Of a DNA stretch of 64,000 bases, positions 5,558 through 53,107 are shown one piece after another. The stretch comes from Bacteroidota bacterium. Lineage in GTDB: Bacteria; Bacteroidota; Bacteroidia; Palsa-948. The stretch is from contig JACRAM010000012.1 in assembly GCA_016213405.1 (NCBI GenBank), positions 3,948 to 67,947 on the forward strand, given 5' to 3'. Under the pieces are notes generated by a model, which saw only the letters and a list, made by a program, of their open reading frames with translations, searched no databases and had not been told where the DNA came from. Numbering within the stretch: the first letter of the stretch is position 1; every line of letters begins with the position of its first letter. Made by a program: the position numbers and the translations under genes.

Positions 5558-6661
5558 ATGAAAACTAAAAAAGAAGTTTACGGTTTATGGTCTGCTGTTT
5601 ACGGTTTTTTCAACTATAAACTTATTTTGTTTTTATTTGTAGTAACTGCAAACTGCAAACTGGAGACTGCAAACTGTTTTGCGCAGGACTTCCACCTCAC
5701 GCAGTTTGATGCCGCTCCGCATTATTATAATCCCGCAATAACCGGAGTCTATTTCGGAGAGCAAGCCAACTATAAAATTTATGGCGATTACCGCTCACAA
5801 TGGAAGGCGTTCGGAACAAAACCCTATTCAACAACCTATCTGGCGTATGATATGCCATACAATAACTGGGGCAAAGAATTTGGAGTGGGCGGTTATTTAA
5901 TTCACAGCCGAAACGGCAAAGGCGGCTTGAACACACTCAACTTCATGCCATCAATTGCTTATAAAATCACAAATGATGTGAGCGGACCTCACAACCTTTC
6001 TGTTGGTTTGCAAATGGGCATTCTTTATAAAAGCTTTGACCCGAACAATTTCACCTATGACAATCAGTATAATCCTGATGCAGACGGAGGTTTTGATGTC
6101 AATACTTCAAGCGGAGAGAATTTTGAAAAAACAAGCTGGCTGAAATTTGACGCCAACATGGGTGTCTTTTACAAATACAAAAAACCGGAATGGAAAGCGC
6201 AGCCATGGGGTGGCTTTTCAATTTATCATGCAACAAAACCAAAACAAACTTTTACAAACGTTACAAAAGACCGCATGCCCATGCACTTCATCTTGCAGGC
6301 AGGCGCTGATTATAAAATAAATGAGGATATAAAAATTATTCCATCCCTCCTTTTTATGAAACAGGCAAAAGCGTATGAGTTTACTATCGGCAGTCTTGGT
6401 TTTTATAAAATGAAAGAAACCCCCTACGAAATTATCGGTGGATTAAATTACCGCTGGAAAGACGCCTTCATTATCCAGGCAGGAATGAAATACGAACAGC
6501 ATATCTTTAAACTTTCATACGATATTAATACATCCTACCTTAATAATTACACCAACGGAAGAGGCGCGTTTGAATTTTCTCTGGTGCTTACCGGCATAAA
6601 CGGCAAACCCCTCTTCAATCCAAAATTCTTTCAGGGAAAAGGAACGAACAAATCGCTCTGA
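5558..6661 (+). CDS. PorP/SprF family type IX secretion system membrane protein
   Basis: 367-aa ORF 13 bp downstream of a type-B CTD cargo gene. FHLTQFDAAPHYYNPAITG fits the PorP/SprF N-terminal signature (Q.SQY..N....NPA.AG). The size and beta-rich composition are typical of the family. Confidence 0.85.
   Translation: MKTKKEVYGLWSAVYGFFNYKLILFLFVVTANCKLETANCFAQDFHLTQFDAAPHYYNPAITGVYFGEQANYKIYGDYRSQWKAFGTKPYSTTYLAYDMPYNNWGKEFGVGGYLIHSRNGKGGLNTLNFMPSIAYKITNDVSGPHNLSVGLQMGILYKSFDPNNFTYDNQYNPDADGGFDVNTSSGENFEKTSWLKFDANMGVFYKYKKPEWKAQPWGGFSIYHATKPKQTFTNVTKDRMPMHFILQAGADYKINEDIKIIPSLLFMKQAKAYEFTIGSLGFYKMKETPYEIIGGLNYRWKDAFIIQAGMKYEQHIFKLSYDINTSYLNNYTNGRGAFEFSLVLTGINGKPLFNPKFFQGKGTNKSL
5576..5610. 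repeat. Heptamer array H1 (gtttacg gtttatg gtctgct gtttacg gtttttt)
   Basis: Five phased 7-bp units read directly. They lie in the N-terminal coding region of the PorP/SprF gene (encodes VYGLWSAVYGFF). Confidence 0.8.
5644..5678. repeat. Heptamer array H2 (aactgca aactgca aactgga gactgca aactgtt)
   Basis: Five phased 7-bp units read directly. They encode TANCKLETANCF just before the AQ signal-peptide end of the same gene. Confidence 0.85.
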
Positions 6662-6671
6662 GATTTCCTTT

Positions 6672-6859
6672 CCTCTCCTGTGGGAGAGGGGCAGACCTGT
6701 CCCGATCGAACTTGTCCCGACCGGAGCGTCAGGAGCATCGGGGGCTGAGGGCTTCTGGAGTTAACGCCACTTTTATTTCTCCCCACTTTGAAGAGTGCCC
6801 TCCTCCCATCCTTGTGCAAGGAGGGGACACAGGGGTGGTTGCTTTCTCCGTAGGAGAAA
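6672..6859. repeat. Cluster of GC-rich pyrimidine-run/purine-run hairpins (REP-like intergenic element)
   Basis: Three hairpins are read directly: cctctcc-tgtg-ggagagg (6672-6689), ccctcc..ggaggg (6798-6803/6820-6825) and tttctcc-gta-ggagaaa (6843-6859). A 15-bp direct repeat (c/t)tgtcccga lies at 6696-6722. The region is visibly more GC-rich than its surroundings. Confidence 0.6.
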
Positions 6860-6995
6860 AATAGTAAAAAGAATTCCCACACAAAACATTCCCCTCTCTT
6901 CCCCTAAAATCTCCTGCACACGGGCAAGCGCGAAAACCGTTTCCATAGAAACCTAATCTTTAAATAATAATAATAAAATCTACGATAAATTAATT

Positions 6996-7003
6996 TAACT
7001 TTG
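6996..7003 (+). promoter_or_regulatory. Candidate Bacteroidota -7 box (TAACTTTG)
   Basis: Matches the TAnnTTTG consensus, 6 bp upstream of the ATG at 7009. No clear -33 TTTG was seen. Confidence 0.3.
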
Positions 7004-7008
7004 TACCG

Positions 7009-14243: not shown

Positions 14244-14360
14244 CTTTTAAATGTCTTTTCTGCCTTTTCTTCTTTTGCCTTCATTTGTTGTATTACACTA
14301 TGGTTTTAGAGTGAAATTTGTTGATTAAGCACAAAGTAAGATAAAGAGCAAAGAACTAAA

Positions 14361-14384
14361 AAGTGTCCCCCAAAGTGTCCCCCA
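14361..14384 (+). promoter_or_regulatory. Tandem 12-bp motif aagtgtccccca x2 (candidate recombinase arm site, left end)
   Basis: Read directly. The same tandem motif recurs in the same orientation at 26022-26045. Confidence 0.5.
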
Positions 14385-14427
14385 ATATAAGTTTCTTTTA
14401 CCTTTACCATAACTAAATAATATTATC

Positions 14428-15660
14428 ATGGCAAAAGTAAACTTTTATTTAAAAGACAAAAAGGCAAAAACAGAAACTTTGGTTTATCTGTTTTTTAGTT
14501 ACAACAATGAACGCCTGAAATATTCCACAGGCGAAAAGATACATCCTAAGAATTGGAACTTTGACAATCAAAGGGTGAAAAAATCTTTTTCAGGCAGTTT
14601 AGAGATGAACAATTTATTTGACCGTATAGGAGAAGGGGTACAAAAAATACACAGAGTTGCAATAACTGAAAATCACAATCTAACAAACGAATATCTCAAA
14701 GGAAAACTTGATAAACAAATTAACCCCGATAGAAATTTGCCAAAGGATTTTTTTGATTTCCTGAGTGAATTTATTGAAGTAAACAAAGTATCTAAGACAC
14801 ATCGCACCATTCAGAAATACAAAACATTAGAAAATCACTTGAAAGATTTTCAAACCAAGAAAAATTTTAAACTCTCCTTTGAAAAAATTGATGCAAGGTT
14901 TTACGAACAATTAACAGCATACTTCATAGGTGATTTAAAACTTTTAAACAATTCAAGTGCCAAATACATAAAAACACTAAAAACATTTTTGCATTGGGCA
15001 ACTGAAAGAGGGTATAACGCAAATCTTTCTTTCGTAAAATTTAAAGCACAGGAAAGGGACGCTGATATTATTTATCTCACAGAAGAAGAACTTTTACGCC
15101 TATACAATTTTGACCTTTCTAAAAAAACTGCACAGGAAAATGTAAGGGATGTATTTTGTTTTGGTTGCTTTACTGGATTAAGATACTCAGATATTATTCG
15201 AGTAAAAAAGGAACACATTAAAGGGGATGAATTGCATTTTATATCTGAGAAAACAACCGACCGTTTAATTATTCCTTTAAGTAACTACGCAAAAGCAATT
15301 CTCAAAAAGCATAAATATTCTTTACCAGTTGTTTCAAATCAAAAAACAAACGAACACTTAAAAGAAATAGGCAAGTTGGAAGGGATAGAGATAGACGAAC
15401 CCATTGTCTTGACAAAGTTTCGTGGTGTGGAAGAAATTCAGATTAGAAAACCGAAACATGAATTTCTTTCTTCGCACACAGCAAGACGAACTTTTGTAAC
15501 TCTTTCACTTGAAAAAGGAATGAGACCTGAAACGGTGATGAGCATAACAGGACACAAGGAGTACGCTACTTTCAAAAAGTATATTAAAATTACAAGCAAG
15601 GTTAAACTTGTTGAAATGAAAAGGATTTGGAACAGACCGCAACTAAAAGCAGTATCCTAA
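14428..15660 (+). CDS. Tyrosine-type site-specific recombinase (phage integrase family)
   Basis: 410 aa. The N-terminus resembles an arm-binding/SAM-like region (AKVNFYLKDKKAKTETLVYLFFSYNNERLKYSTGEKI). Catalytic-domain residues are visible: GLRYSDI (Arg), SSHTARRTF (HxxR), GHKEYATFKKYI (His..Tyr). Confidence 0.9.
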   Translation: MAKVNFYLKDKKAKTETLVYLFFSYNNERLKYSTGEKIHPKNWNFDNQRVKKSFSGSLEMNNLFDRIGEGVQKIHRVAITENHNLTNEYLKGKLDKQINPDRNLPKDFFDFLSEFIEVNKVSKTHRTIQKYKTLENHLKDFQTKKNFKLSFEKIDARFYEQLTAYFIGDLKLLNNSSAKYIKTLKTFLHWATERGYNANLSFVKFKAQERDADIIYLTEEELLRLYNFDLSKKTAQENVRDVFCFGCFTGLRYSDIIRVKKEHIKGDELHFISEKTTDRLIIPLSNYAKAILKKHKYSLPVVSNQKTNEHLKEIGKLEGIEIDEPIVLTKFRGVEEIQIRKPKHEFLSSHTARRTFVTLSLEKGMRPETVMSITGHKEYATFKKYIKITSKVKLVEMKRIWNRPQLKAVS

Positions 15661-15678
15661 TCTTTACCCTTTTTTATT

Positions 15679-15686
15679 TACCTTTG
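15679..15686 (+). promoter_or_regulatory. Candidate -7 box (TACCTTTG) upstream of the HEPN gene
   Basis: Matches TAnnTTTG, 7 nt before the TTG start proposed by the ORF track. Confidence 0.25.
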
Positions 15687-15692
15687 CTCTAA

Positions 15693-16085
15693 TTGAGCAA
15701 GCAGAAACATATTGACCATTGGTTAGCAAGCGCAGACAAGGACTGGGATGTGTTGCTCCACTTGATAAAAGGCAAAAAATATGTTCATGCTTTGTTTTTC
15801 GGACATCTCTATTTGGAAAAACTTTCTAAAGCATTATGGGTACAAAACAATTCTGAAAACCATCCACCGAGAACACACAATTTGTTAAAGTTGCTGAATG
15901 AAGCAAATGTTTCACTGGGTGAAAATGACCAACTGTTTTTACTCAAACTCAACAAATATCAGATTGAAGGACGTTACCCCGAAGACATTGAAAAACTTTA
16001 TGCCATCACGCACAAAGAATTAGCAACCGAATACATTAAAACAATTAAACAACTTCAACTATGGCTGCGAAAACAACTGCGATAA
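15693..16085 (+). CDS. HEPN domain protein (toxin-like partner of MNT)
   Basis: 130 aa. ..HALFFGHLYLEKLSKALW.. and ..YQIEGRYPED.. resemble the HEPN (kanamycin-NT C-terminal-like) family. It overlaps the downstream nucleotidyltransferase gene by 25 bp. The start is TTG in the ORF track, so the start site is uncertain. Confidence 0.7.
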   Translation: MSKQKHIDHWLASADKDWDVLLHLIKGKKYVHALFFGHLYLEKLSKALWVQNNSENHPPRTHNLLKLLNEANVSLGENDQLFLLKLNKYQIEGRYPEDIEKLYAITHKELATEYIKTIKQLQLWLRKQLR

Positions 16086-16375
16086 ACTATTCAAAAAGAT
16101 TTTTGAACGCCTGCAAGGAACTACCCATTAAAATTGACAGGGCAATTCTTTTCGGCTCTGTGGCGCGGGGTAAAGCAACTTCCGATTCAGATATTGATTT
16201 GGCTTTATTTTCGGATAGTTTTTCAAATAACATTCTGAAAAATATTGACTTGCTCGGCAAGGTGCTGATTCATTATCCCGAATTAGATGTGCATACTTTC
16301 CCTTCACACAGCCAGAAGAAAGATAGCATGATGGAAGATGAAATAAAACAAACAGGCATTGCAATAAAAGTTTGA
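16061..16375 (+). CDS. Minimal nucleotidyltransferase (MNT) domain protein
   Basis: 104 aa with LFGSVARGKATSDSDIDLALF, the GS..RG..(D/E).D pol-beta-type nucleotidyltransferase signature. Confidence 0.85.
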   Translation: MAAKTTAINYSKRFLNACKELPIKIDRAILFGSVARGKATSDSDIDLALFSDSFSNNILKNIDLLGKVLIHYPELDVHTFPSHSQKKDSMMEDEIKQTGIAIKV

Positions 16376-16474
16376 AGTCAGTTGAGTAGATAAGTTGCAC
16401 AGCATTTTCACAGATAAAAGTTTTGATGTAAATAGAAAACTTCACTTTTCTATACAACTTTTTTATTTTTTTGC

Positions 16475-17023
16475 ATGAAACAACAACAAACATCAGGATT
16501 GTTAAACTGGAATCCGACAAAAGGAAATCCATTTGATTATCAAATCCACAATTACAAAGACACTATTTCAAATGATACGGAATGGAAGATTGAAAAGCGA
16601 ACAAACACCAAAGAGAAACCAATCAAACAAATTTATTTTTTTCATCATTTGAAAACTCTTGCAAGTTTGAATTTAAAATTTATTGAATTGCTGAATGGCG
16701 TTGATAAGGGTAATATAGTTACGCTTCTTGATAAGCAATACATTGATTGCACAAAACCGATAGTGGTATGGTTTACTTATCCCTTTAGCCAAAACGTAAA
16801 AGCAACCATCTATCCGCTTGTAAGAACATTTGATGAAAGCAAACAACAAATCATATCTGAACACGCAGGATATTTAATATGGCAGATTGCAAGAGTATAT
16901 GCCGAAATTTATCAAAATCATTGGGAAAGTGTTGGCATATATGGACACGGATTTGCAGATTTATATTTGGAAGGACTTGAGTTCTTCAAAAACAATGAAG
17001 TTGAATTGCTGATGGGCGCATAG
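16475..17023 (+). CDS. Hypothetical protein, no recognisable family
   Basis: 182-aa ORF with ordinary, non-low-complexity composition, co-oriented with the rest of the island. I recognise no motif. Confidence 0.6.
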   Translation: MKQQQTSGLLNWNPTKGNPFDYQIHNYKDTISNDTEWKIEKRTNTKEKPIKQIYFFHHLKTLASLNLKFIELLNGVDKGNIVTLLDKQYIDCTKPIVVWFTYPFSQNVKATIYPLVRTFDESKQQIISEHAGYLIWQIARVYAEIYQNHWESVGIYGHGFADLYLEGLEFFKNNEVELLMGA

Positions 17024-17029
17024 ATTTTT

Positions 17030-17246
17030 TTCTTGCTTCTTTGTTGGTGAAAATATTTTTTTCACGCAAAAGAAAACAAAAACGAAAAAAAATAAAAACT
17101 TGAAAACTTGAAAACTTGAAAAAAATAAAAAAACACAAGAAACAGCATTGTATTGAAAAAAAAGCAAAAAAAGAAACATAGAAACGAAAAAAAGAAACAG
17201 AAATAAAAAACTAAAAAAAAGAAAATCCAAAAATAAAAAATTTAAA
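17030..17246 (+). repeat. Polypurine A-rich tract with 3 x aaaacttg and repeated agaaac(a/g) words
   Basis: ~215 bp almost devoid of T/C on the plus strand. It contains the tandem aaaacttgaaaacttgaaaacttg (17090-17113) and agaaacag/agaaacat/agaaacga/agaaacag words. Confidence 0.8.
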
Positions 17247-18299
17247 ATGCTTAGAAAAGTTGATAAGCCAGACCAATTTGATGAGTTTATGGAAGCAATC
17301 ATGCTTCTTGGCAAAGCATCAGTTGAAAATTCTAAGTATTACGAAACAAAAAGAAAAACACTTTACACAGAATTAGAAAAACTTAAAACACCAGAAGAAA
17401 AAATAAAGTTTTTGGAAAACGAAAAAATAAAAAACCATGACGACCTAATTGAAAAAAAGAAAAAATATTACAATAATGAAAATGTAAACATGGTAAGTAT
17501 TGAACATTTGTATAAAAGGTTTGATAAGGAAATTTCAGGCGAGATTGCTAAATATGAACCTTTAATAAAAACAAAACAAAAAAATACAATGAATCCTCTT
17601 TCTAATGACGAAATTATTTCTTCTGGTCTTTTAAATAAAGCAATAGAGAATCATAAATTCTATTTAGATGAAAAACAAAAACGATTTCAGGAATTAAAAA
17701 AGAGAAAAACATACTATGAAAAATGCGAATATTTAATGACGAACAAAGCAAACCTAATTGAACTTGCACAGGAACATCAAAACGAAATATTAAAAACTTC
17801 AACCGCAGACGAAAGGGCTTATGATATTGATGTAATGGCAGGAGTGTTGGAAAGATTAAAATACGAAAATGAATCCTTATTACAGGAATACAAACCCTTC
17901 CTTGCTTTAGAAATCGAAAATAATAAACAAAAAGAAAAAAAGGAAAATTCAGAAAACGAGAAAAATAAAAATGCAGATGAATTAGATTTAACGGAACAAA
18001 TTTTACTTATCAGTTATTTGCAGGACGAGGGATTATTTGTTAAACGCAAACCACAGCAAACCGAAAAAAATATACAGGATTTAATTGCACTTCTTTTGAA
18101 CCAAAATTATGAAACTATAAAATCAAAATTTCAAGATATTAAAACCATAAAAGAAGGTAGAATTACCTCCGCACAAGCAAGACATAAAATAAAAAATCTA
18201 AAAAATATTTCCGAAATTTTTAAAACAATTAGCGCAGATAATACCTACAAAAAAATAAACGAGCGAATAACAGAATTAGAAAAAATTGCTAATTCTTAA
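17247..18299 (+). CDS. Hypothetical Lys/Glu-rich, probably coiled-coil protein
   Basis: 350-aa ORF, highly charged (runs of K/E/N). No catalytic motif was recognised. Confidence 0.6.
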   Translation: MLRKVDKPDQFDEFMEAIMLLGKASVENSKYYETKRKTLYTELEKLKTPEEKIKFLENEKIKNHDDLIEKKKKYYNNENVNMVSIEHLYKRFDKEISGEIAKYEPLIKTKQKNTMNPLSNDEIISSGLLNKAIENHKFYLDEKQKRFQELKKRKTYYEKCEYLMTNKANLIELAQEHQNEILKTSTADERAYDIDVMAGVLERLKYENESLLQEYKPFLALEIENNKQKEKKENSENEKNKNADELDLTEQILLISYLQDEGLFVKRKPQQTEKNIQDLIALLLNQNYETIKSKFQDIKTIKEGRITSAQARHKIKNLKNISEIFKTISADNTYKKINERITELEKIANS

Positions 18300-18400
18300 C
18301 TCATTTTTTCTTTTCTTAAAGTTCGGGGCTACCCCGAACCCTACCCCCGCAGTTAAGCAGACATACCTTTGGCAAAGAATTTCAAAAAATACTTTGTCAA

Positions 18401-18691
18401 ATGGAAAACCAATTAATCGTTACCCTGAAAGTTGATGAACTGAAAGGAATCATCAACGAAAGCGTGTCAAACGCTATCTCAAAAATCCCACACCAACCCA
18501 AAGAAGATGATTCTTTGTTACGAAGAAAAGACGTAGCAAAATTATTTTCTGTTTCGCTTGTAACTATTTCCGCATGGATGAAAAGTGGAAAGTTGCCGTA
18601 TCACCGCATCAATTCCAGAATCTTCTTTAAAAGGAAAGAAGTAATGGAAGCAATGCAATCCACACAAAAATATAAACGCTTACATAAATGA
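18401..18691 (+). CDS. Excisionase-type helix-turn-helix DNA-binding protein
   Basis: 96 aa. LLRRKDVAKLFSVSLVTISAWMKSGKLPYHRINSRIFFKRKEV fits the MerR-like/excisionase HTH_17 pattern. Its stop overlaps the start of the primase gene (ATGA). Confidence 0.75.
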   Translation: MENQLIVTLKVDELKGIINESVSNAISKIPHQPKEDDSLLRRKDVAKLFSVSLVTISAWMKSGKLPYHRINSRIFFKRKEVMEAMQSTQKYKRLHK

Positions 18692-20658
18692 AAAAGCCCC
18701 ATCTCGACAACGGGGCTTCAATCACGGAAAATAATTTTCCTTTGGAAATTCAGCAAGACAAAGGTAAAGATTTCCCGATTAACGCCAAGCCGTTTGTTTC
18801 CATTTATGAAACAGTAACGGATTCGGCCCCGAAACAAATTTCCATTTACGAAGCCCTGAGTAAAGTTTCTTCGGGCGAACTGGAAAAACAAATACTTGCG
18901 ATACGCGAATGTAAAATCAAAGAAGAAAGAGATAAACTGAAACGGAACTTACCTTCTATTACTGTTTCGGGAACTTTCAGCAAGGGACACGCGAAAGAAA
19001 ACATTACAGAGCATAGCGGATTAATTCAAATTGATTTTGATTCGGTAGAAAATCCTGCCAAGACGAAAGAAATTTTTAGGAATGATGTTTTCACATTCGC
19101 AACCTTTATCAGCCCATCGGGAACAGGTGTAAAAGTTATTGTAAAAGTTTCTCCTGAAAAACATTCTGAAAGTTTTTTGTTACTGAAAAAGTTTTATGCA
19201 GAAAAATATGGTCTAAAACTTGACGAAAAATGCAAGGACGTAAGCCGTTTGATGTTTTTAAGCCATGACAAAAATATTTTCGTCAATCCGAACTCTGTTT
19301 TATTCGATTCTGTTAGCCGAGATGTAGAAAAAATTATTTTGCATATAGAAAAAAATAAAATTGATATTAGCCCTGATTATGATAACTGGTTAAAAATTGG
19401 CTTTGCTTTTTCTTCTTACTTTGGAGAAACAGGAAAAAACTTTTTTCACCGCATAAGTAAATTTTATACGAAATACTCTTTTTTAGATTGCGAAAAACAA
19501 TATAATAACTGTTTGCGGGAAGAAAAAACCGCAAAGACGCAAGAAAAACGAGGGGTTTCTATAAAAAGTTTCTTCGCAATAGCAAAAAGTTTCAGTATAA
19601 ACATTTCTTCAGAAACGAAGAAAACAAAACCAGAAGAACCAGAAACAGAAAAGACAGAAGAAACAACAAAAGGAAGAAACGAAACAAAAACTAAAAACGA
19701 AACATCAAAGTTTTTTCTTGTAGAAAAGTTTATCAGTAGTCGTTACGAAATTCGATATAACGAGGTATCAAATGAAGTAGAATGTAAAACGAAAAATGAA
19801 ACAGAGTATAAAGCCCTAAATGAAAATAATCTTTTCAGAGAACTACAATTAAACAATATTTATTTCCCGCAAAACAATTTACTTGCTTTGCTTCGTTCTG
19901 ATTTTGTTTCGTCCTATAATCCAATAAAAAAATATTTTGATGAATTGCCTGAATGGGATAATACTACCGACCACATCAAAAAATTATGCAGTTATATCAC
20001 AGTAAAAGACCAAGAAAGATTCAACAGGCAGTTCAAAAAAATGCTTGTTCGCTGTATTGCTTGCGCCCTGCATGGTATTTTCAATAAACACGCTTTTATC
20101 TTAATTGGCGGGCAGAGTAGCGGAAAAACAACCATTACACGCTGGTTATGTCCGCCAAAATTGAAAAACTACATGGCGGAAAATATTTCTACTGATAAGG
20201 ACAGTTTAATTGCGCTATCAGAAAATTTTTTCATCGTACTGGATGAAATTGCTTCCCTGCATAAGACGGAACAAACCGCGCTGAAAAGTGTTTTCACGAA
20301 AGACAAAATAAAAATCAGGCGACCATTTGACCGAAAACCAACTGTAAGTATACGAAGGGCAAATTTTATCGGTTCAACAAATAAATATGAATTTCTAAAT
20401 GATGAAACTGGCTCTGTGCGCTGGCTTTCTTTCGTGATTGAAAAAATTGATTTTAATTACTCACAGGAAATAAATATTGATTTGGTCTGGGCGCAGGCGT
20501 ACACACTTTTTAAAAGCGGATTCAAATACGAATTAACGCTTGATGAAGTATTTGAAAACGAAAATTCAAACTCCGAACATCAGCAAACTTCAGTCGAAGT
20601 GGATTTGATTCAAAAACATTTTGCACTGCAACAAAAGAGGGCTACGATAAATATTTAA
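18688..20658 (+). CDS. VirE-family primase/helicase-like replication protein (BT4734-like N-domain + P-loop NTPase), frame-broken near the 3' end
   Basis: The N-terminal part SGTFSKGHAKENITEHSGLIQIDFD..FISPSGTGVKVIVKV fits a primase-like N-domain. Walker A is LIGGQSSGKTT and Walker B is FIVLDEIASL. The ORF stops at 20658, but a family-typical tail continues in another frame. Confidence 0.75.
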   Translation: MKKPHLDNGASITENNFPLEIQQDKGKDFPINAKPFVSIYETVTDSAPKQISIYEALSKVSSGELEKQILAIRECKIKEERDKLKRNLPSITVSGTFSKGHAKENITEHSGLIQIDFDSVENPAKTKEIFRNDVFTFATFISPSGTGVKVIVKVSPEKHSESFLLLKKFYAEKYGLKLDEKCKDVSRLMFLSHDKNIFVNPNSVLFDSVSRDVEKIILHIEKNKIDISPDYDNWLKIGFAFSSYFGETGKNFFHRISKFYTKYSFLDCEKQYNNCLREEKTAKTQEKRGVSIKSFFAIAKSFSINISSETKKTKPEEPETEKTEETTKGRNETKTKNETSKFFLVEKFISSRYEIRYNEVSNEVECKTKNETEYKALNENNLFRELQLNNIYFPQNNLLALLRSDFVSSYNPIKKYFDELPEWDNTTDHIKKLCSYITVKDQERFNRQFKKMLVRCIACALHGIFNKHAFILIGGQSSGKTTITRWLCPPKLKNYMAENISTDKDSLIALSENFFIVLDEIASLHKTEQTALKSVFTKDKIKIRRPFDRKPTVSIRRANFIGSTNKYEFLNDETGSVRWLSFVIEKIDFNYSQEINIDLVWAQAYTLFKSGFKYELTLDEVFENENSNSEHQQTSVEVDLIQKHFALQQKRATINI

Positions 20659-20885
20659 CGGCAACCGATATTCTTAGTTGTCTTGCCCAGCAATATCCGC
20701 ATTTATTAAAACAAAGCAATAAAATAGGAATCGGGAAAGCACTTACCTATCTCGGTTTCAAAAAAATTTCTTTTCGGGAAGCGAACAGGCAACCGAAGTA
20801 CGTTTATTATATAAAAATTGTAGAAGCACTACCTACACTTACTACAATAACGCAACACATTCAAACTGATAATTTAGAGATGTAG
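20640..20885 (+). other. Out-of-frame C-terminal continuation of the primase/helicase gene
   Basis: Frame 3 is open from 20556 to the TAG at 20883-20885. It reads ..KEGYDKYLTATDILSCLAQQYPHLLKQSNKIGIGKALTYLGFKKISFREANRQPKYVYYIK.., which looks like a genuine protein tail rather than noise. Confidence 0.5.
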
Positions 20886-20969
20886 TAAGATATATTTATT
20901 TTATCTTACTACATCTAACTACTTACTACTATATGACATTTTTTGTAGTCAGTAGTAAGAGTAGTAAGA
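20838..20969. repeat. Six copies of the 8-mer GTAGTAAG in both orientations, including an 11-bp perfect inverted repeat
   Basis: Forward copies are at 20882, 20952 and 20961. Reverse copies (cttactac) are at 20838, 20905 and 20922. The inverted repeat gtagtaagata-N9-tatcttactac spans 20882-20912. Confidence 0.8.
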
Positions 20970-20980
20970 GGTTTCCGCAT

Positions 20981-21043
20981 CGTTACAACAACGCTACAAC
21001 ACCGTTACAACATGGCTACAACATGGCTACAACATGGCTGCGG
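20981..21043 (+). repeat. Iteron array: 5.5 x 11-bp units (cgttacaacaa cgctacaacac cgttacaacat ggctacaacat ggctacaacat ggctgcgg)
   Basis: Read directly. The period is exactly 11 bp. Confidence 0.85.
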
Positions 21044-21120
21044 ACTGGTTAAATAACGTAAAATAACAGTTGCAACACAGTTAATAATGTCTGTAAATCT
21101 TTAACTGCTCCTTATCCTTA

Positions 21121-21162
21121 TCAAATCAAATCTTCAAAAATTCAAATCTTCTTCAAATCATT
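21121..21162 (+). repeat. TCAAATC(T/A)T repeats, the last two as an 11-bp tandem (ttcaaatcttc ttcaaatcatt)
   Basis: Read directly. Copies start at 21121, 21126, 21142 and 21153. Confidence 0.7.
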
Positions 21163-21206
21163 CCCATATCTTTTCCTTGACTTTATCATGTCGGTTGTAG
21201 AAACGC

Positions 21207-21239
21207 CTTGATACTTCTTTGATACTTCCTTGATAATGC
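21207..21239 (+). repeat. Iteron array: 3 x 11-bp units (cttgatacttc tttgatacttc cttgataatgc)
   Basis: Read directly. The period is 11 bp. Confidence 0.8.
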
Positions 21240-21299
21240 TTTAATAATCCTGAAAGCACACGCCTTACTTTACTTTACAAAACTTATCCGTGAAAAGAA

Positions 21300-21307
21300 T
21301 ATATTTG
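21300..21307 (+). promoter_or_regulatory. Candidate -7 box (TATATTTG) that would give a ~235-nt leader for mod
   Basis: Matches TAnnTTTG. Only TTTA, not TTTG, lies ~24 bp upstream. Confidence 0.3.
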
Positions 21308-21383
21308 CTCTCAACAAAAATAAAAACCATTAAAGTATAGAAACATAATACAGTTCAAATAAAGAATTTGCGTTAAGCCAATT

Positions 21384-21548
21384 TTCGTATCAGGAAACTG
21401 CTAATTTTCAAAGTACACGAAAGAAAGGTGAAACGCTCACGCAATGCGTGGGCTTTTGCTTTTTTCGTGTACTGGGATAGCAGTCCCTCTGATACGGATT
21501 AGTAGAATGTCCCACGCAGGTTTTTTTGTGGCTGCTAACACAAAAAAA
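21384..21548 (+). promoter_or_regulatory. Candidate structured RNA leader / regulatory element upstream of the Type III mod gene
   Basis: Nested complementary pairs: 21386-21393/21489-21496 (8 bp, extendable), 21397-21403/21478-21484 (7 bp) and 21413-21422/21463-21472 (10 bp, extendable). An apical palindrome cacgca-a-tgcgtg lies at 21438-21450. The apical tgcgtggg (21445-21452) is also complementary to the downstream cccacgca (21511-21518), which is followed by T7. A 10-bp hairpin tttttttgtg/cacaaaaaaa (21521-21530/21539-21548) ends 1 nt before the ATG. Confidence 0.4.
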
Positions 21549-21549
21549 T

Positions 21550-23451: not shown

Positions 23452-23453
23452 AA

Positions 23454-26012: not shown

Positions 26013-26021
26013 AGTCATTAA

Positions 26022-38268: not shown

Positions 38269-38276
38269 GGTTTTAA

Positions 38277-38306
38277 GAATTACGAATATAGGCGAATTAC
38301 GAATAA
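38277..38306. repeat. GAATTAC-type short repeat (gaattacgaata ..5 nt.. gaattacgaata)
   Basis: aattacgaata is duplicated 17 bp apart. Each copy contains ~1.5 units of the heptamer gaattac. The site is intergenic between divergent genes. Confidence 0.5.
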
Positions 38307-44762: not shown

Positions 44763-46536
44763 AATTTTGTTCCACAAAATACATTTCAATTTCGCCTTTG
44801 TTCTTAGCAGGAATTTTTCCTCTGAATTGACAACTGAATTTATTTTTGATTAACTCTTGAGTTGTTCCTGAGATATTAATCTTTCCAGCTTTGCCTGATG
44901 ATTCCATTCTACTCGCTGTATTAACTGTATCTCCCCAAATGTCGTAAGCGAATTTTTTATCTCCAACTACTCCAGCTGTAACAGAACCTGTATGAATTCC
45001 TATTCTAAGGCTCCATTTATTACTTTGTCCTTTCATCCAATTTTGTATTTCCATCGCTGCTTTCACAACATCCATCGCATTCGTTGTGTTTGCTGTCGGC
45101 AATCCACCCACACACATATACGCATCTCCGATGGTTTTTATTTTTTCTATTGGGTATTTGGAAATTACTTCATCAAACTTCTTAAAAAGAAAATCTAACT
45201 CGCTCACCAATTCTTCTGCAGAAAGTTTTTCGGAAATGTCAGTGAAATTTTTAAAATCAGTGAACATTACTGTTACATTTTCATAATGTTTTGCCGTTGC
45301 TTTGCCGTGTTGTTTCAATTCTCTCGCTGTTTCAGCAGGAAGAATGTTCAACAGAAGTTTTTCAGATTTTCTTCTTTCACGAAAAATAAATACTGAAAGA
45401 ATCAAAGCAACTAATAATCCTGCTGCCACTGACCAGATTATTATTTTCTGGCGATTCATTTGTGCGTCCTGAAGTTCTTTATCCTTATTTAATAAAGCAA
45501 TCTGCTGTTCTTTTTTCTCCGTTTCATATTTGGTTTGCATTTCGGTGATTTGTTTAGAGGATTCCTGATTCAACAATGTATCCTTCATTTCAGAATAGAA
45601 TTTATGATATTCATATGCTTTCTTCCAGCTGCCCACATCTTGACCAAAAGCTTTCTGAGCCTTTAAAGAATAAATGTCCGCCAGTAATTTTGCTGCTCTT
45701 GCAATAAACTCAGGATAATTATTTTCCTGTGCAATTTTTAGCGCTTCTTCAGAATATTCAATTGCTTTTTTTTCATCGCCAAGCTTATGGTATACCGCTC
45801 CGATATTGTTAAGCGAATTCCCAACTCCAAACATATTTCTAATCTCTTTTTGCAGTTCCAACCCTTTGTGATAATACTGCAGGGCATCCAGTAAATTATT
45901 TTTGATGTAATAGCAAAACCCAATATTATTTAATGCAGTCGAAATACCTTCTATATGTTTTGCACTCTCCCATGCATCAAGACTTTGCATAAAATACACG
46001 AGTGCTTTATCAAGGTTTCCCATGATTTTATATTCAACCCCGATATTATTCAAGGAATATCCAATATCTTTTTTATCACCAAGCTTCATTCTGATTGTCA
46101 GACTCTTTTCATACGACTCAAGCGCTTTATCTCTTCGACCGGTTGCATCATAAATAAATCCCAGTTCATTCAGTGCGGTTGCAATTCCTTTTTTATCATC
46201 TAACTCCTCCCAGATTTTCATACTCTTTAAGTAATATTCCAACGCTTCATCCATTTTCCCAAAATTGGCATAGACGTATCCCAAATTATTCAGCGAACTT
46301 GCAACTCCTCTTTTGTCATAAAGTTTTTCCGAAAGCCGCAATGCTTCTTCAGAATATTTAAGCATATTCTTTTCATCACAATTCTCAAATAGCTGCAATA
46401 AAATACTGATTTTACCAGTATCTTCATTCGAATTTCCAAGAGCAGTTAAAAGCGAGTCTTCGATTGATTTTTGTGAAAAGCAGATAGAAAGAAAAGAAGA
46501 AAGTTGAAAACAGAGCAAAAAAAATCCGGACTTCAT
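44755..46536 (-). CDS. TPR-repeat sensor protein with C-terminal class III adenylate/guanylate cyclase domain
   Basis: The order is signal/TM, ~8 TPR units, a coiled-coil segment (TEMQTKYETEKKEQQIALLNKD), a TM segment, then VTVMFTDFKNFT..KTIGDAYMCVGG..LRIGIHTGSVTAGVVG.KKFAYDIWGDTVNTASRMES. Confidence 0.9.
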   Translation of the reverse strand: MKSGFFLLCFQLSSFLSICFSQKSIEDSLLTALGNSNEDTGKISILLQLFENCDEKNMLKYSEEALRLSEKLYDKRGVASSLNNLGYVYANFGKMDEALEYYLKSMKIWEELDDKKGIATALNELGFIYDATGRRDKALESYEKSLTIRMKLGDKKDIGYSLNNIGVEYKIMGNLDKALVYFMQSLDAWESAKHIEGISTALNNIGFCYYIKNNLLDALQYYHKGLELQKEIRNMFGVGNSLNNIGAVYHKLGDEKKAIEYSEEALKIAQENNYPEFIARAAKLLADIYSLKAQKAFGQDVGSWKKAYEYHKFYSEMKDTLLNQESSKQITEMQTKYETEKKEQQIALLNKDKELQDAQMNRQKIIIWSVAAGLLVALILSVFIFRERRKSEKLLLNILPAETARELKQHGKATAKHYENVTVMFTDFKNFTDISEKLSAEELVSELDFLFKKFDEVISKYPIEKIKTIGDAYMCVGGLPTANTTNAMDVVKAAMEIQNWMKGQSNKWSLRIGIHTGSVTAGVVGDKKFAYDIWGDTVNTASRMESSGKAGKINISGTTQELIKNKFSCQFRGKIPAKNKGEIEMYFVEQNSI

Positions 46537-47195
46537 TGAATATCGCTTAATATTTTCTCAAGAGCAGCTGAAAGGTTAGAAACAGCAAGTTTAATATTCC
46601 AGTTTTTCTTGTTTCTTCTCACAACATAATTTGAAATGGCTCGAATCTGAACGCAGGAAATTTTTTCATGATTGCAAGCAAGAAAAAAAGCAGCACCTTC
46701 CATGCTTTCAATATCAGGATTGAATTTTTTGATAACCTTTTTTATGCTGACAGAATTTCCATGAGCCGTGTTGACTGTAATTCCTTTTACTTTTGGAAGA
46801 ACAGATAAAACTCTTCTTATCTTATCGCTTCTGACTTCTGACTTCTGACTTCTGACTTCCGGCATTCCCATTTCCTTCAGTGCCAAAAACTTTTCGCCAT
46901 CCTCCGCACCCAAATCTGCAAAACAATCACTTGTTACGTTCACAACGGTTCCTAGTGGAATATTTTTTTTAAAACTTCCTGCAATCCCAGCGTTAATTGC
47001 CAAGTCATATTTTTTATTCAGAATTTTTCCTAAATGAAATGCCGTTGCGGTCATTCCAACTCCTGTAATCAAAACGTCAATGGATTGTTCCCCGAACCGA
47101 AAAGATGAAATATTTTCTTTAGCAGAAATTTTTCTGAACTTTTTCAGCAGAGGAGTAATCTCAAATTTGGTTGCAGAAACAAGCAGGATTTTCAT
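46533..47195 (-). CDS. mqnB: Futalosine hydrolase-like nucleosidase (PNP_UDP_1 family)
   Basis: MKILLVSATKFEITPLL.., ..TGVGMTATA.. and ..ESMEGAAFF.. fit the MTAN/futalosine hydrolase family pattern. The symbol is tentative. Confidence 0.6.
   Translation of the reverse strand: MKILLVSATKFEITPLLKKFRKISAKENISSFRFGEQSIDVLITGVGMTATAFHLGKILNKKYDLAINAGIAGSFKKNIPLGTVVNVTSDCFADLGAEDGEKFLALKEMGMPEVRSQKSEVRSDKIRRVLSVLPKVKGITVNTAHGNSVSIKKVIKKFNPDIESMEGAAFFLACNHEKISCVQIRAISNYVVRRNKKNWNIKLAVSNLSAALEKILSDIQ
46828..46860. repeat. Heptamer array H7: 4.7 perfect copies of cttctga
   Basis: cttctgacttctgacttctgacttctgacttcc read directly. On the minus strand it encodes PEVRSQKSEVRS inside the mqnB-like CDS. 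Confidence 0.95.
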
Positions 47196-47701: not shown

Positions 47702-47703
47702 TT

Positions 47704-48306: not shown

Positions 48307-48309
48307 AAA

Positions 48310-50022
48310 ATGAAAAATATTTTTCATTACTTCATTTCTTTTTTCACTTTCCACTTTCTGTTCTCTACTTGTTACTCTCAGGATTACCTTGGCATTGCCA
48401 ACAGCGCCTTTGCTGGAGTAAATGGAATTGATGTAAACCCTGCAAGCATTGTAAACAATCCCCGCAAATGGGATGTAACCATTATTGGATTAAATGTAGC
48501 CGTGGCAAATAATTATGTCGGGCTGAACTCAAAAGGGAGCAAGCATCTTAAATCCATGAATCCTGATCCTTTTGATCAGGCAAATTTTCTCACCTTGGGT
48601 TCAAATGGAAAAACTGTTTCAGTTTTTGCCGGAGTTAATATTACACTTCCCTCATTTATGTTTACCCGCCCGAAACACAAGGACGCATTTGCTTTCACCT
48701 GCAAGAGCAGGATTTACGCAGAGTTGGATGGCATTGATCCGACACTTGCTGATATTATGATTAACGGACAAAATGATAGCGCGCTTTTCAACCAGGATTT
48801 ATCTGCATTAAGAATCAGCGCACAGGCAATGGTGTGGAACGAATACGGAATCACATACGGAAAAACTGTTATGCAAACAAACAACGAACGGTTGAATGTG
48901 GCAGGACGACTGAAATATCTTCAGGGAATTGCCGCCATGTATCTTTTTGTGAAGGATATAAAATATAATTTTTATACTAAAGACAGTATTGGTGTTGAAA
49001 GTTCACTTATTCATTACGGTCATTCCGATAATCTTGAATTCAATAAGGAATCTGCAAAATTTAAAGCCGGTGGAAAACCATCTTTTGGTCTTGACCTTGG
49101 CGCTACCTATGAATTTCACCCGCTGACGGATGTTCACTCCCGTACAAAATCACAATCCAAAACAACTCCGCTTCAGCATGAATACAAATACAAAATCGGT
49201 TTGTCTGTTCAGGATTTGGGCTGGATAAAATATTTGAAGCCCGCAGATGCGCGAGATTTCAAAGCGGAAGTACAAGGAAATGTTGATTTTAACACACTGC
49301 AAAGTTCCGGAACAAATCCGCTTGCTTCGGCAGATGATTCGCTGAAATTTAAATTCAAGATGGTTCCGGATGATGATAAATTCAGGATGAACCTTCCTAC
49401 GCTTATCAGCGCACAAGGCGACTATTACGCAGGAAAAAATATTTATGTGAATTCAACTTTCAATTATGCTTTTCAGTTTAAGAATAATGAAGATAAAATT
49501 CATGAAGTAACCACTTTCAGCATCACTCCGCGCTGGGACTGGAAATGGCTGGGTGCGTATGTTCCTTTTTCATACAACAAATATTCACATGTGCGCGCTG
49601 GAGCATCTCTTCGCATTGGTCCGCTGATTTTCGGAACAGCCGATCTGCTTCCTCTTCTTTCCAAACGCGATATAAAAGGCATTGATTTTCATTTCATGCT
49701 TAAGGTTCCGCATATTCATTTCGGAAAGAAAGATAAAAAACCAAGAAGCAAGAGCAAGTTTGACGTGAACAGAAAAAAAGATAAGAAACCGAAAAAGCAA
49801 AAACAGGGCAAGACAGACATGCCGAAAAAAGATACTACTGCTACGAAACATAAACAACCCAAGCCTGAAAAGAAAAAGAAAAAAGAACATGACATCAAGA
49901 CCGTAAAACAGAAAAAGAAAACAAAAAAACATATCTTCCCCAGAGTTCACATTTTCAAAAAGAAAAACAAACACACCGCAAATCCGGAAGACCGCGACCA
50001 CATTATTTATTTTAAATTGTAA
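48310..50022 (+). CDS. Hypothetical outer-membrane beta-barrel-like protein with a ~90-aa Lys-rich insertion near the C-terminus
   Basis: It has a signal peptide, alternating beta-strand-like composition and a terminal ..IIYFKL. The family was not recognised. Confidence 0.65.
   Translation: MKNIFHYFISFFTFHFLFSTCYSQDYLGIANSAFAGVNGIDVNPASIVNNPRKWDVTIIGLNVAVANNYVGLNSKGSKHLKSMNPDPFDQANFLTLGSNGKTVSVFAGVNITLPSFMFTRPKHKDAFAFTCKSRIYAELDGIDPTLADIMINGQNDSALFNQDLSALRISAQAMVWNEYGITYGKTVMQTNNERLNVAGRLKYLQGIAAMYLFVKDIKYNFYTKDSIGVESSLIHYGHSDNLEFNKESAKFKAGGKPSFGLDLGATYEFHPLTDVHSRTKSQSKTTPLQHEYKYKIGLSVQDLGWIKYLKPADARDFKAEVQGNVDFNTLQSSGTNPLASADDSLKFKFKMVPDDDKFRMNLPTLISAQGDYYAGKNIYVNSTFNYAFQFKNNEDKIHEVTTFSITPRWDWKWLGAYVPFSYNKYSHVRAGASLRIGPLIFGTADLLPLLSKRDIKGIDFHFMLKVPHIHFGKKDKKPRSKSKFDVNRKKDKKPKKQKQGKTDMPKKDTTATKHKQPKPEKKKKKEHDIKTVKQKKKTKKHIFPRVHIFKKKNKHTANPEDRDHIIYFKL
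48343..48377. repeat. Heptamer array H8, weak (ttcactt tccactt tctgttc tctactt gttactc)
   Basis: Period-7 pattern in the signal-peptide coding region (FFTFHFLFSTCY). It is more degenerate than the other arrays. Confidence 0.4.
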
Positions 50023-51434: not shown

Positions 51435-51559
51435 AAAAGACCAATCCCTTTTTACAAAAGAAGTTATCGACACAATCCTTTGTTGATATTTCCATTTTTC
51501 ATTTTCTTTTTCATTTGGTTCTCGTTCGTACATTCGTGAAAATTCTTAATTCGTAGTTT

Positions 51560-52444
51560 ATGAAAGCATATATTTTCCCAGGACAAGGCTCACAGTTTTC
51601 AGGAATGGGCAAAGACCTTTTTGAAAGCTCAGTTATTGCCAGAGAACTTTTTGAAAAAGCAAATACTCTTCTTGGTTTCCACATAACCGGAACTATGTTT
51701 GGCGGAACCGATGAAGAACTCAAGCAAACACAAATCACACAGCCCGCAATTTTTCTGCACTCTGTAATTCTTGCAAAAACTCTGGATGGAAATTTAAAAC
51801 CCGATGCTGTGGCAGGACATTCGCTCGGAGAATTTTCTGCTTTGGTTTCAGCAAACGCAATGACATTTGAAGACGGACTTTCTCTTGTTTACAAACGCGC
51901 AATAGCGATGCAAAAAGCCTGCGAAGCAAATCCTTCCACCATGGCGGCAATTTTAAATCTTGACGATAAAATTGTAGAGAATATTTGTGCGGAGATTTCA
52001 AACTCAGGCGAAGTGGTGGTTGCGGCAAACTATAATTGTCCCGGGCAATTGGTTATTTCTGGTTCCATCAAAGGCGTGAACATTGCCTGCGAAAAATTAA
52101 AAGCAGCGGGAGCAAAGCGTGCATTGCTGCTGCCCGTGGGCGGTGCTTTTCATTCTCCGTTGATGGAGTCCGCAAAAAAAGAGTTGGAAGCCGCCATCAA
52201 CGCTACAAATTTTTCTACACCTATTTGTCCTGTTTATCAGAATGTGAATGCAAGTCCTGTCACTGACCCATCTGAAATAAAAAAGAATTTAATCGCGCAA
52301 CTCACATCTCCCGTTCGCTGGACACAAACCATTCAGCGCATGACAGCCGATGGAATAAATTCTTACGTGGAAGTGGGTCCGGGAAAAGTTTTGCAGGGAT
52401 TAGTTAAGAAAGTGAATAAAGACGCAGAAGCAATTTCGGCATAA
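51560..52444 (+). CDS. fabD: Malonyl CoA-acyl carrier protein transacylase
   Basis: FPGQGSQFSGMG, the active-site GHSLGEFSA, and ..GAFHSPLM... Confidence 0.95.
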   Translation: MKAYIFPGQGSQFSGMGKDLFESSVIARELFEKANTLLGFHITGTMFGGTDEELKQTQITQPAIFLHSVILAKTLDGNLKPDAVAGHSLGEFSALVSANAMTFEDGLSLVYKRAIAMQKACEANPSTMAAILNLDDKIVENICAEISNSGEVVVAANYNCPGQLVISGSIKGVNIACEKLKAAGAKRALLLPVGGAFHSPLMESAKKELEAAINATNFSTPICPVYQNVNASPVTDPSEIKKNLIAQLTSPVRWTQTIQRMTADGINSYVEVGPGKVLQGLVKKVNKDAEAISA

Positions 52445-52453
52445 AATCATTTA

Positions 52454-53107
52454 ATGAAAAAGCGCATCCTAATTCTTCTTGGTTCTTGGTTTTTGGTGCT
52501 TGGTTCTGCTCAAGCACAGTTCTTCCAAGGTATTGGCATCACGGGCGGTGTAACGCTGGCAAAACAAAAATGGTTTCTTACCAACTCGATTGATGGAATT
52601 GATATTGTTAAAAAGAAAAATATTTTTGGCTTCAACGGTTCAGTAAGAGCGGAGTTTATTGATAATGATGTGATGCGATGGGTAACTGAATTTCAATTCA
52701 ACCAAAAAGGATGTAAAGACAAAACTGACGCTGCCACTTTCAGAAACCGGCTGAATTATATCTGCTGGAATAATTTTTTGAAATTCCAATACGAAACATT
52801 TGATGGTTTTCCTTATATGTTGCTTGGACCAAGAGTTGAATACACGCTCACGCAGGCAACAAATTCCCCCGCCATCACTGGCGCATTTAATAAATTAAAT
52901 TTCAGCTGGGGAATTGCTGCAGGTTTTGAAAAAATTGTTTACAGTTATTTCAAGCCCTTCATTGAAGTGCATTTCAATCCTGACACTCCTTTTTATTACG
53001 CATACAACGAAGAAACATTCAGAATTCGCAACCGCGCATGGGAATTGCGCATTGGTTTGATTTACCGCCCGGGCGGACATGATTCTTGCCCAGCTGTTAT
53101 CTATTAA
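52454..53107 (+). CDS. Outer membrane beta-barrel (porin-family/OmpA-like barrel) protein
   Basis: 217 aa with a signal peptide ending AQA and alternating aromatic beta-strand pattern. It ends ..RIGLIYRPG.. and has no recognisable enzymatic motif. Confidence 0.6.
   Translation: MKKRILILLGSWFLVLGSAQAQFFQGIGITGGVTLAKQKWFLTNSIDGIDIVKKKNIFGFNGSVRAEFIDNDVMRWVTEFQFNQKGCKDKTDAATFRNRLNYICWNNFLKFQYETFDGFPYMLLGPRVEYTLTQATNSPAITGAFNKLNFSWGIAAGFEKIVYSYFKPFIEVHFNPDTPFYYAYNEETFRIRNRAWELRIGLIYRPGGHDSCPAVIY
52478..52512. repeat. Heptamer array H9 (cttggtt cttggtt tttggtg cttggtt ctgctca)
   Basis: Phased 7-bp units encoding LGSWFLVLGSAQ of the signal peptide. Confidence 0.8.

Follow-up and report, generated by a model that had tools for sequence, protein, structure and literature searches.

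Heptanucleotide arrays in the window and their host genes

We analyzed a 64,000-nucleotide stretch of DNA from a Bacteroidota bacterium (NCBI GenBank assembly GCA_016213405.1, contig JACRAM010000012.1, positions 3,948 to 67,947; hereafter, the window), in which short tandem arrays with a 7-bp unit (heptanucleotide, or period-7, arrays) are embedded in protein-coding genes. An initial annotation, made from the sequence alone, had listed at least eight such loci. Using Tandem Repeats Finder (TRF) to detect tandem arrays, and defining as strong those with period 7 and a TRF score of at least 36, we find six (named here by their start positions: 5576, 5644, 29265, 31107, 46828, and 52476), which are 31–35 bp long and contain 4.4–4.9 copies of the unit (Table 1). 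Each of the six is carried in frame by a gene. Two PorP/SprF genes have three of them in their signal peptides; the others lie, one each, in the signal peptide of a protein of unknown family that is predicted to be secreted, in a C-terminal sorting domain for type IX secretion (T9SS), and in a surface loop of the futalosine hydrolase MqnB. The 7-aa periodic peptides that had been read from them (VYGLRST, TANCKLE, PYAICHM, SEVRSQK, and LGSWFLV) are correct.

The arrays are more frequent than expected by chance: 100 second-order Markov shuffles and 100 triplet-block shuffles of the window yield on average only 0.02 and 0.03 period-7 arrays, respectively, at a score of at least 36. At the thresholds that give six arrays of period 7, the window contains none of period 5, 6, or 8. 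(The 52476 array was missed by the composition filter of the shuffle script and was included instead in the multi-period count, at the same thresholds.) The degenerate array at 5576, which is weak when scored by matches at a lag of 7 nt (17/28), fits its consensus unit at 29 of 35 positions, and the 31107 array reaches 25/28 lag-7 matches.

Four weaker loci are indistinguishable from the low-complexity background. Those at 26172 and 48343 give no TRF report at a score of 30 and have 18/28 lag-7 matches each, a level that is reached in the window at 21 places for lag 7, 17 for lag 6, and 15 for lag 9; orthologues of the 48343 gene are equally T-rich and have no clear array. The locus at 38277 (TRF score 30, 21% indels, 15/28 lag-7 matches) is a spaced direct repeat, and a further stretch at 56163, absent from the initial annotation, has 19/28 matches. 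Strongly A-rich stretches at 16000–20700 and 32640–32694 (AT skew 0.22), with many imperfect A-rich repeats, supply most of the low-complexity background matches of periods 6 to 9. Chance, low complexity, or an assembly artefact could thus explain the weak four. Applied to the strong six, such an origin carries next to no weight, and we regard it as already refuted by the shuffles, by the in-frame position of the arrays within conserved genes, and by the presence of arrays at the same sites in independently assembled metagenomic contigs and metagenome-assembled genomes (MAGs) of different projects.

Table 1. Tandem arrays and candidate repeats in the window
Feature	Position	Strand	Support and location
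GTTTACG x4.6, degenerate	5576–5607	+	TRF score 36, 68% matches; PorP/SprF codons 7–17
AACTGCA x4.7	5644–5676	+	TRF score 52, 84% matches; PorP/SprF codons 29–40
GTTTAC[GT] x4.4–5	29265–29295/99	+	TRF; GH18-CUB-T9SS protein codons 735–747
ATGGCAT x4.9 (coding strand GCCATAT/GCCATGT)	31107/31109–31142	-	TRF score 54, 88% matches; PorP/SprF codons 12–24
CTTCTGA x4.6, perfect (coding strand GAAGTCA)	46828–46859	-	TRF score 64, 100% matches; MqnB codons 113–123
TTCTTGG x4.6	52476–52507	+	TRF score 50, 84% matches; codons 8–18 of gene 52454–53107
Doubtful GATTTAG-like stretch, decayed or chance	26172–26206		8 nt upstream of tRNA-Glu (26092–26164, -)
11-bp direct repeat GAATTACGAAT x2, 6-bp spacer, no heptamer array	38273–38304		Sequence read; between divergent genes
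Doubtful T-rich period-7 stretch	48343–48377	+	Signal peptide of DUF5723 gene 48310–50022
Doubtful AT-rich TTTTAAA x4.1	56163–56191	+	TRF score 30; codons 4–13 of GWxTD gene 56153–57436

Two of the strong arrays lie in the same PorP/SprF gene (5558–6661; Pfam PorP_SprF, E = 1.8e-38). The first, at 5576, lengthens the n-region of the signal peptide, which is 42 aa long as against a mode of 20–23 aa in 79 orthologues (i.e., about +21 aa, or nine units), and it is missing from the 81%-identical orthologue P0122 (we number homologous proteins P and fetched loci L). The second, at 5644, occupies the c-region immediately ahead of the cleavage site between AQ and D. Its last unit is the conserved cleavage-region sequence AACTGTTTTnCGCAGGAC, which suggests that the unit was seeded from local DNA. 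At a protein identity of 58%, the orthologue in L117 has an array in the same register and ahead of the same conserved sequence (GACTGCA AACTGCC TGTTGCC TGCTGCC AACTGTT). The array at 31107 is in the signal peptide of a second PorP/SprF gene (30205–31176, Pfam), for which a search of GTDB genomes returned no orthologues; both PorP genes sit directly behind CHU_C-type T9SS cargo genes.

The remaining hosts are of other kinds. Gene 27061–29451 encodes a GH18-CUB-T9SS protein in which the 29265 array falls within the Por_Secre_tail sorting domain; this Pfam domain spans residues 727–794 and fills profile positions 1–74 of 75, so the array adds no length. Register and unit family are kept in the orthologues in L121 (79% identical) and L122 (73%), with GTTTACA GTCTATG GTCTACA GTCTACG. 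Gene 52454–53107 has a 217-aa product with a signal-peptide-like N terminus and no Pfam match; in the window its signal peptide contains the CTTGGTT array, whereas the L033 orthologue has TACTGCC x4 at the same place. The arrays at 5576 and 29265, in unrelated genes, share the unit GTTTACG and an identical variant second unit, GTTTATG, so that the annotated rule of a different unit at each locus, correct in general, fails for this pair.

Signal peptides of PorP/SprF proteins vary in other ways as well. Between P0283 and P0285, and in the P0133 cluster, proteins with 94% identity in the mature part have signal peptides that largely cannot be aligned, indicating that the stretch encoding the signal peptide changes at a much higher rate than does the remainder of the gene. 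A signal-peptide ending of the form WRG[IVT]E[GA]EA-Q recurs in the PorP orthologues P0133, P0138, P0140, P0148, P0169, and P0231 and also in an unrelated L030 protein (5328–6002; LFWRGVGGEAAAQ), which suggests a recurrent G-rich repeat unit.

Array turnover at orthologous sites

The MqnB gene (46533–47195; Pfam PNP_UDP_1, with homologues named futalosine hydrolase in their source databases) offers the most detailed view of how an array changes in place. In the window, its array lies in a variable surface loop, directly behind the codons for MGL, and consists of four perfect GAAGTCA units followed by the decayed units GAAGCGA and TAAGATA; a perfect core with decayed flanking units is the pattern expected of slippage-driven homogenization. 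A search of 5.8 billion proteins found the nearest MqnB homologue at 79% identity, which leaves the window organism with no close sequenced relative; matches in GTDB genomes, at 54% identity or less, are from Vicingaceae, Flavobacteriales, Chitinophagaceae, and Sphingobacteriaceae.

Period-7 DNA structure is kept in the orthologues, contrary to the outcome (the same residues encoded without it) that, according to the initial annotation, would have refuted its reading. In L113, whose MqnB is 78% identical, the array has the same register and length and is decayed (GAAACAA GAAGTAA TAACCCT GTAGTCA GAAGCAA), and the L030 loop has five decayed GTCTCAA-type units. Other loops hold different units: GTTTCAG x5, perfect, in L115; CCCAAAT x4–5 in L116; and GGTATCA x4, perfect, in both L032 and L033. 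Distant MqnB relatives (Vicingaceae and others, ∼50% identity) have a different, non-repetitive loop that is about 5 aa longer. Across 103 homologues, amino acid identity within the loop at a lag of 7 is 0.13, compared with 0.05–0.08 at the other lags between 3 and 11.

Between distant orthologues, loop lengths also change in steps of exactly 7 aa, as between P0021 (37 aa, VSGFRFQVSGFRFQNK) and P0030 (30 aa, SADFRFQNK) and again between P0080 (44 aa) and P0071 (37 aa). With a 7-nt unit in a triplet code, selection against frameshifts would leave steps of three units as the only length changes open to an array within a gene. An insertion of the array into MqnB is ruled out, since the orthologues are of equal length (216–221 aa) and loop length is conserved. 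For the evolution of the unit we rely on the in-register cases only (the window, L113, and L030, and the pair L032/L033). A chain of one- or two-base substitutions linking the MqnB-loop units of different lineages was also considered and is suggestive only, given that rotation of the unit brings any pair to within a distance of 2 with ∼9% probability by chance.

The arrays in these comparisons are old residents of their sites and not recent insertions, several of them having been re-homogenized. The initial annotation had entertained mobile mini-element insertions; most arrays are instead found in place and in register in orthologues at 58–79% protein identity, and the unit can match neighboring native sequence.

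The MqnB loop also accommodates other short repeats and insertions. The loop peptide of homologue P0039, EEWKNGRMEEWK, has an 8-aa period, implying an octanucleotide array (AATGGAAG) where other lineages have heptamers. In P0018, P0020, P0045, and P0066, a GC-rich insertion encoding PAGRAG.../...PDGQ-like peptides lies within the heptamer-array loop, and a similar one (PAGQAGL, between FTVYGL and LFPVEF) lies within the sorting-domain array of the GH18 homologue P0301; these may represent a small palindromic element that uses the same tolerant sites.

Period-7 arrays across Bacteroidota

For comparison we used ∼1.7 Mb of fetched Bacteroidota loci, many of them centered on mqnB. Period-7 arrays occur at 94 per Mb in the window, 90 per Mb in close relatives, 87 per Mb in the loci around mqnB, and 20 per Mb in 1.33 Mb of mixed Bacteroidota sequence, whereas 150 kb of E. 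coli K-12 contain none. Period 7 is more frequent than periods 5, 6, 8, 9, 10, and 11 in each of the Bacteroidota sets: eight arrays as against zero or one in the close relatives, 16 as against zero or one around mqnB, and 27 in the mixed set as against 5 for period 6, 11 for period 8 (the second commonest class), and 7 for period 9. Since the excess is found in loci of Flavobacteriales, Chitinophagales, Sphingobacteriales, and Cytophagales, and heptamer repeats had been reported earlier (PMC4679880; PMC4692102), the process is not the lineage-specific one that had been proposed; it occurs widely in the phylum and at a higher density in the lineage of the window.

Placement is far from uniform. 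About 32 of the 59 arrays in all loci fall in the 8% of sequence outside long open reading frames (ORFs), in line with the repeat-generating process and the tolerance hot spots that the initial annotation had inferred; the process is real and specific to heptamers, and about half of the arrays in relatives are intergenic. Within genes, the first 45 codons hold 9 of 23 coding arrays compared with 3.05 expected (P = 0.002), so the annotated preference for 5′ ends stands, but arrays are found as well in enzyme loops, in sorting domains, and after stop codons. Four coding arrays lie in T9SS sorting-domain loops (in the window, L071, L081, and L101), and others in loops of MqnB and of MqnA/D (VitK2_biosynth; L018, L019, and L024) and in a DUF2079 membrane protein. 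Menaquinone genes thus look over-represented as hosts, which may be a sampling effect of fetching loci around mqnB.

Array length is near-constant in the window, as the initial annotation had remarked, largely as a result of a detection floor (arrays of fewer than about 3.5 copies go unseen) combined with an upper limit, in genes, on what a loop or signal peptide can tolerate. The median is 4.6 copies for coding arrays, none of which exceeds 7.4, whereas intergenic arrays in relatives reach 15.6.

One explanation for arrays in coding regions is that they are contingency loci, in which gain or loss of a single unit would phase-switch surface or secreted proteins. The unit length, which is not a multiple of 3, would suit such a switch, and so would the host genes, which for all strong arrays but one encode a T9SS component, a T9SS cargo, or a predicted secreted protein; four of these five arrays are in the 5′ coding region. 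There are precedents in the AAGACTC tract in the 5′ coding region of E. coli K1 neuO, which is ON only at copy numbers divisible by 3 (PMC13001214), and in the hmw1A promoter of H. influenzae, with its 7-bp repeats (PMC8262952). As in some of the arrays described here, the repeat unit of neuO is 7 nt long, lies in the 5′ coding region, and yields a 7-aa periodic peptide, with a frame that is kept at three-unit steps. However, neuO is a proven contingency locus with long perfect tracts (3–53 copies, 20 being the commonest) and high-frequency switching (PMC13001214), whereas the window tracts are short (4–5 copies), are imperfect in five of six cases (68–88% matches), and are expected to slip rarely. 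Arrays are present, moreover, in the housekeeping menaquinone enzymes MqnB and MqnA/D and in the DUF2079 membrane protein, no gene is split at an array in the ∼1.7 Mb of loci, and members of 90%-identity protein clusters have identical loops (in a very small sample). We consider a contingency function unlikely.

Several intergenic arrays begin 2–6 nt past a stop codon or end 3–12 nt ahead of a start codon; those of L008, L009, L032, and L034 end 3–7 nt before the start. In the Vicingaceae MAGs L006–L010, every genome has a heptamer array in the spacer upstream of the mqnB start (∼2894–2998), with units that all differ (AATTAGA/ACTGGAA, GAGTACA+CACTCAC, CACCCAC, ATTAACT, and TAACAGT). A "three-frame stop" function for stop-rich intergenic arrays was considered, but their position was rejected as evidence for it, because no ORF can run through an array that has stops in every frame.

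Alternatively, the arrays could be functional cis-elements, selected as binding sites or as structure-free mRNA that tunes translation. Conservation of position with variation in sequence would be in keeping with this, as would the unlike units 3–72 nt upstream of the Vicingaceae mqnB start codon, the non-random unit vocabulary resembling TAACTGA (see below), and the perfect array common to two very divergent genomes (L032 and L033); for TAACTGA repeats upstream of start codons, MacGregor suggested binding by S1, cold-shock proteins (Csp), or a CsrA-type protein (PMC4679880). Set against this, the units differ almost everywhere, mid-gene loops and C-terminal regions host arrays beyond the neighborhood of start codons, and the arrays of L030, L113, and L114 are decayed while the rest of the gene is unaltered. 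A role in RNA structure is not supported: the predicted folding energy of 53 arrays relative to shuffles shows no bias either way (mean z = −0.33), and an Rfam search matched no family to the arrays, returning the tRNA-Glu alone. A cis-acting function is, on balance, improbable.

Unit sequences and the origin of the arrays

The 59 arrays fall into 51 unit classes. Identical units at independent loci amount to about 4 pairs versus 2.45 expected, which is not significant, and shared unit identity was therefore rejected as evidence of mobility. The units are nevertheless non-random: among 52 independent arrays compared with random genomic 7-mers on either strand, the cores TCA/TGA (27 observed, 14.2 expected), AGT/ACT (27, 10.2), AGTT (12, 3.6), GTCA (8, 2.3), and GTCAG (5, 0.4) are over-represented. 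The units are modestly closer than chance to TAACTGA and CAACAGT (20 of the 52 within two mismatches, compared with about 11–11.6 expected; P about 0.01) and are no closer than chance to three control heptamers. Tandem TAACTGA itself is absent from the window and from all fetched loci.

A mobile mini-element or a dedicated generator (e.g., an enzyme resembling a reverse transcriptase or primase that copies a 7-base template over and over), in place of ordinary slippage, would be one way to spread preferred cores among unrelated genes and genomes. It could also explain why GTTTACG, including the variant second unit GTTTATG, recurs in two unrelated window genes, why a composite hairpin of inverted heptamer arrays is present twice in L101, and why heptamers are patchily distributed in Bacteroidetes, cyanobacteria, and Beggiatoaceae, as noted earlier (PMC4679880). 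However, the two GTTTACG arrays have no common stretch longer than ∼10 nt and differ in age, one being old and the other recent; identical independent units are no more numerous than just described; orthologous arrays hold their register and evolve in place; and the sequence around the window arrays contains no flanking inverted or target-site repeats, although no dedicated repeat search was made. Miniature inverted-repeat transposable elements (MITEs) and repetitive extragenic palindromic (REP) elements are recognized by near-identical copies and by terminal inverted repeats or target-site duplications; here the units vary by locus, the L101 pair being the exception. We accordingly accord a mobile or dedicated generator little likelihood. 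For phase variation, a role in RNA structure, and a mobile element alike, we found no support.

Inverted pairs of heptamer arrays able to form hairpins (AGTAGTC... facing ...AACTGAC) occur in L101 (1911–2005 and 8612–8682) and L021 (5504–5618); the two in L101 are near-identical and intergenic.

Heterocystous cyanobacteria carry short tandemly repeated repetitive (STRR) sequences, a few fixed heptanucleotide units found at many, mostly intergenic, loci; the units are reportedly CCCCAGT (STRR1), TTGGTCA (STRR2), and CAACAGT (STRR3) (Mazel et al. 1990). The arrays described here resemble STRRs in being dispersed tandem heptanucleotides but differ in having their own unit at nearly every locus and, in the window, in lying in genes in all six cases, and no tandem copies of these three units were present in any locus. 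The STRR-like designation of the initial annotation is therefore not upheld.

They are closer to the long simple sequence repeats (LSSRs, with units of 1–11 nt) surveyed by Mrazek et al. (2007). As that study is summarized in PMC4679880 and PMC4692102, most prokaryote genomes have more long simple repeats of the heptanucleotide class than of any other, the preference for 7 has been tentatively linked to how long a piece of DNA the polymerase contacts, and units that are a multiple of three are the likeliest to lie within coding regions. The window arrays are likewise head-to-tail heptamers, above chance and above other unit lengths, and slippage is the origin proposed for LSSRs; they differ from LSSRs, as far as the citing summaries describe these, in being short (∼4–5 copies) and in that every strong one is in frame within a gene. 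Changes in 7-nt steps have precedents in indels between Cyanothece strains (PMC4679880).

TAACTGA and other heptamer direct repeats have been described in Beggiatoaceae, cyanobacteria, and five Bacteroidetes, many adjoining start or stop codons and a few at the edges of coding regions (MacGregor 2015, PMC4679880). These too are heptamer direct repeats of 2–6 copies, and the units found here lean toward TAACTGA-like cores, but the TAACTGA repeats are mostly a few nucleotides upstream of start codons, whereas the window arrays are downstream of the start codon or mid-gene with units that vary by locus. The GGGAATC and GGGGA(T/C)T heptamers of Xanthomonas and Nostoc (PMC4692102) are comparable in their over-representation by lineage, conserved position between genes, variation in length and sequence, and occasional inverted pairs; they are G-rich, quadruplex-capable, and intergenic, unlike the Bacteroidota units, which are not G-rich and not close to GGGAATC. 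The window arrays thus belong to the heptanucleotide long simple repeats, are neither STRRs nor TAACTGA repeats, and constitute no new kind of element. In this literature (Mrazek et al. 2007 being represented by its citing summaries), we found no mention of arrays lying in frame within genes, of their retention at the same sites in orthologues while the unit turns over, or of 7-aa length steps in signal peptides and loops.

The reading we favor, and hold to be moderately probable, is that the arrays are heptanucleotide simple-sequence repeats made by replication slippage biased to 7 bases and filtered by selection. Arrays would arise and be renewed in place through slipped-strand mispairing at replication, with slippage in this lineage strongly favoring a 7-base and slightly an 8-base register. 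Within genes, gain or loss of one unit would shift the frame and be purged, leaving three-unit changes (21 nt, 7 aa) as the sole survivors, a restriction that may itself help an array to persist. Arrays would be retained where almost any peptide serves (signal peptides, enzyme loops, and T9SS sorting-domain loops) and in intergenic spacers, and a resident array would stay put for a long time, either decaying by point mutation or being re-homogenized, sometimes to an altered unit. The excess of period 7, where the arrays lie, their retention in orthologues, the turnover of units, and the 7-aa length steps are observed; that slippage is the generator, as well as what causes the preference for 7, we infer.

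Several observations weigh against this reading. Ongoing slippage was not observed directly, in a very small sample: there are no copy-number variants within 90%-identity protein clusters, and a flank-anchored search of JGI metagenomes for a second allele of the L115 array returned only the same contig. The L032 and L033 arrays share the same perfect 28-nt core in MqnB genes whose products are only 62% identical and whose third-codon identity, at 0.55, is near saturation; unbiased neutral turnover should have altered the unit, so weak selection on the peptide, a bias in unit sequence, or transfer is needed to explain it. The 2- to 12-fold enrichment of unit cores, seen in coding and intergenic arrays, is not predicted by slippage alone. 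Slippage also leaves unexplained why 7 prevails over 6 or 9 in genes, which should accommodate units of 3n more readily, and how the first in-frame step of +21 nt originated. With the L032/L033 identity, the non-random units, and the preference for 7 unaccounted for, a sequence-biased generator or weak selection keeps some plausibility.

A broader version of this idea is that Bacteroidota heptamer arrays, the cyanobacterial STRR and TAACTGA repeats, and the Beggiatoaceae TAACTGA repeats share a single origin in a sequence-biased (AGT/TCA-core) generator or in selection, the latter with frame-locked evolvable linkers or slow switches in mqn and T9SS genes as one possibility. If true, it would account for identical perfect arrays amid saturated change, as in L032/L033, and for the shared unit vocabulary; we regard it as doubtful.

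Under biased slippage, a mutational bias would shape proteins, in that signal peptides, enzyme loops, and secretion-tag loops would be partly written by 7-base slippage in steps of 7 aa. The 7-aa periodic low-complexity N termini met in MAG annotations belong genuinely to the genes and do not have to be dismissed as errors, and aligners and signal-peptide predictors will encounter N termini that are unalignable between close orthologues. Loci such as the MqnB loop offer a possible system in which to study the birth, homogenization, and decay of bacterial microsatellites.

Apart from the arrays, the window contains a low-GC segment (14359–26047, 31–36% GC) with a tyrosine integrase gene (14428–15660), a primase/VapE-like gene (18688–20658), and a type III restriction-modification pair (mod, 21526–23451; res, 23454–26012). 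A doubled motif, AAAGTGTCCCCCA, is present at both ends (14359–14385 and 26020–26047), and the tRNA-Glu gene adjoins the right end; the segment has the appearance of an integrative island at tRNA-Glu. Upstream of mod, a gap of 870 bp contains two 11-bp tandem arrays, CATCGCTACAA x5.6 (20978–21039) and TTGATACTTCT x3.5 (21208–21246), possibly iterons or a tract with a regulatory role in the island.

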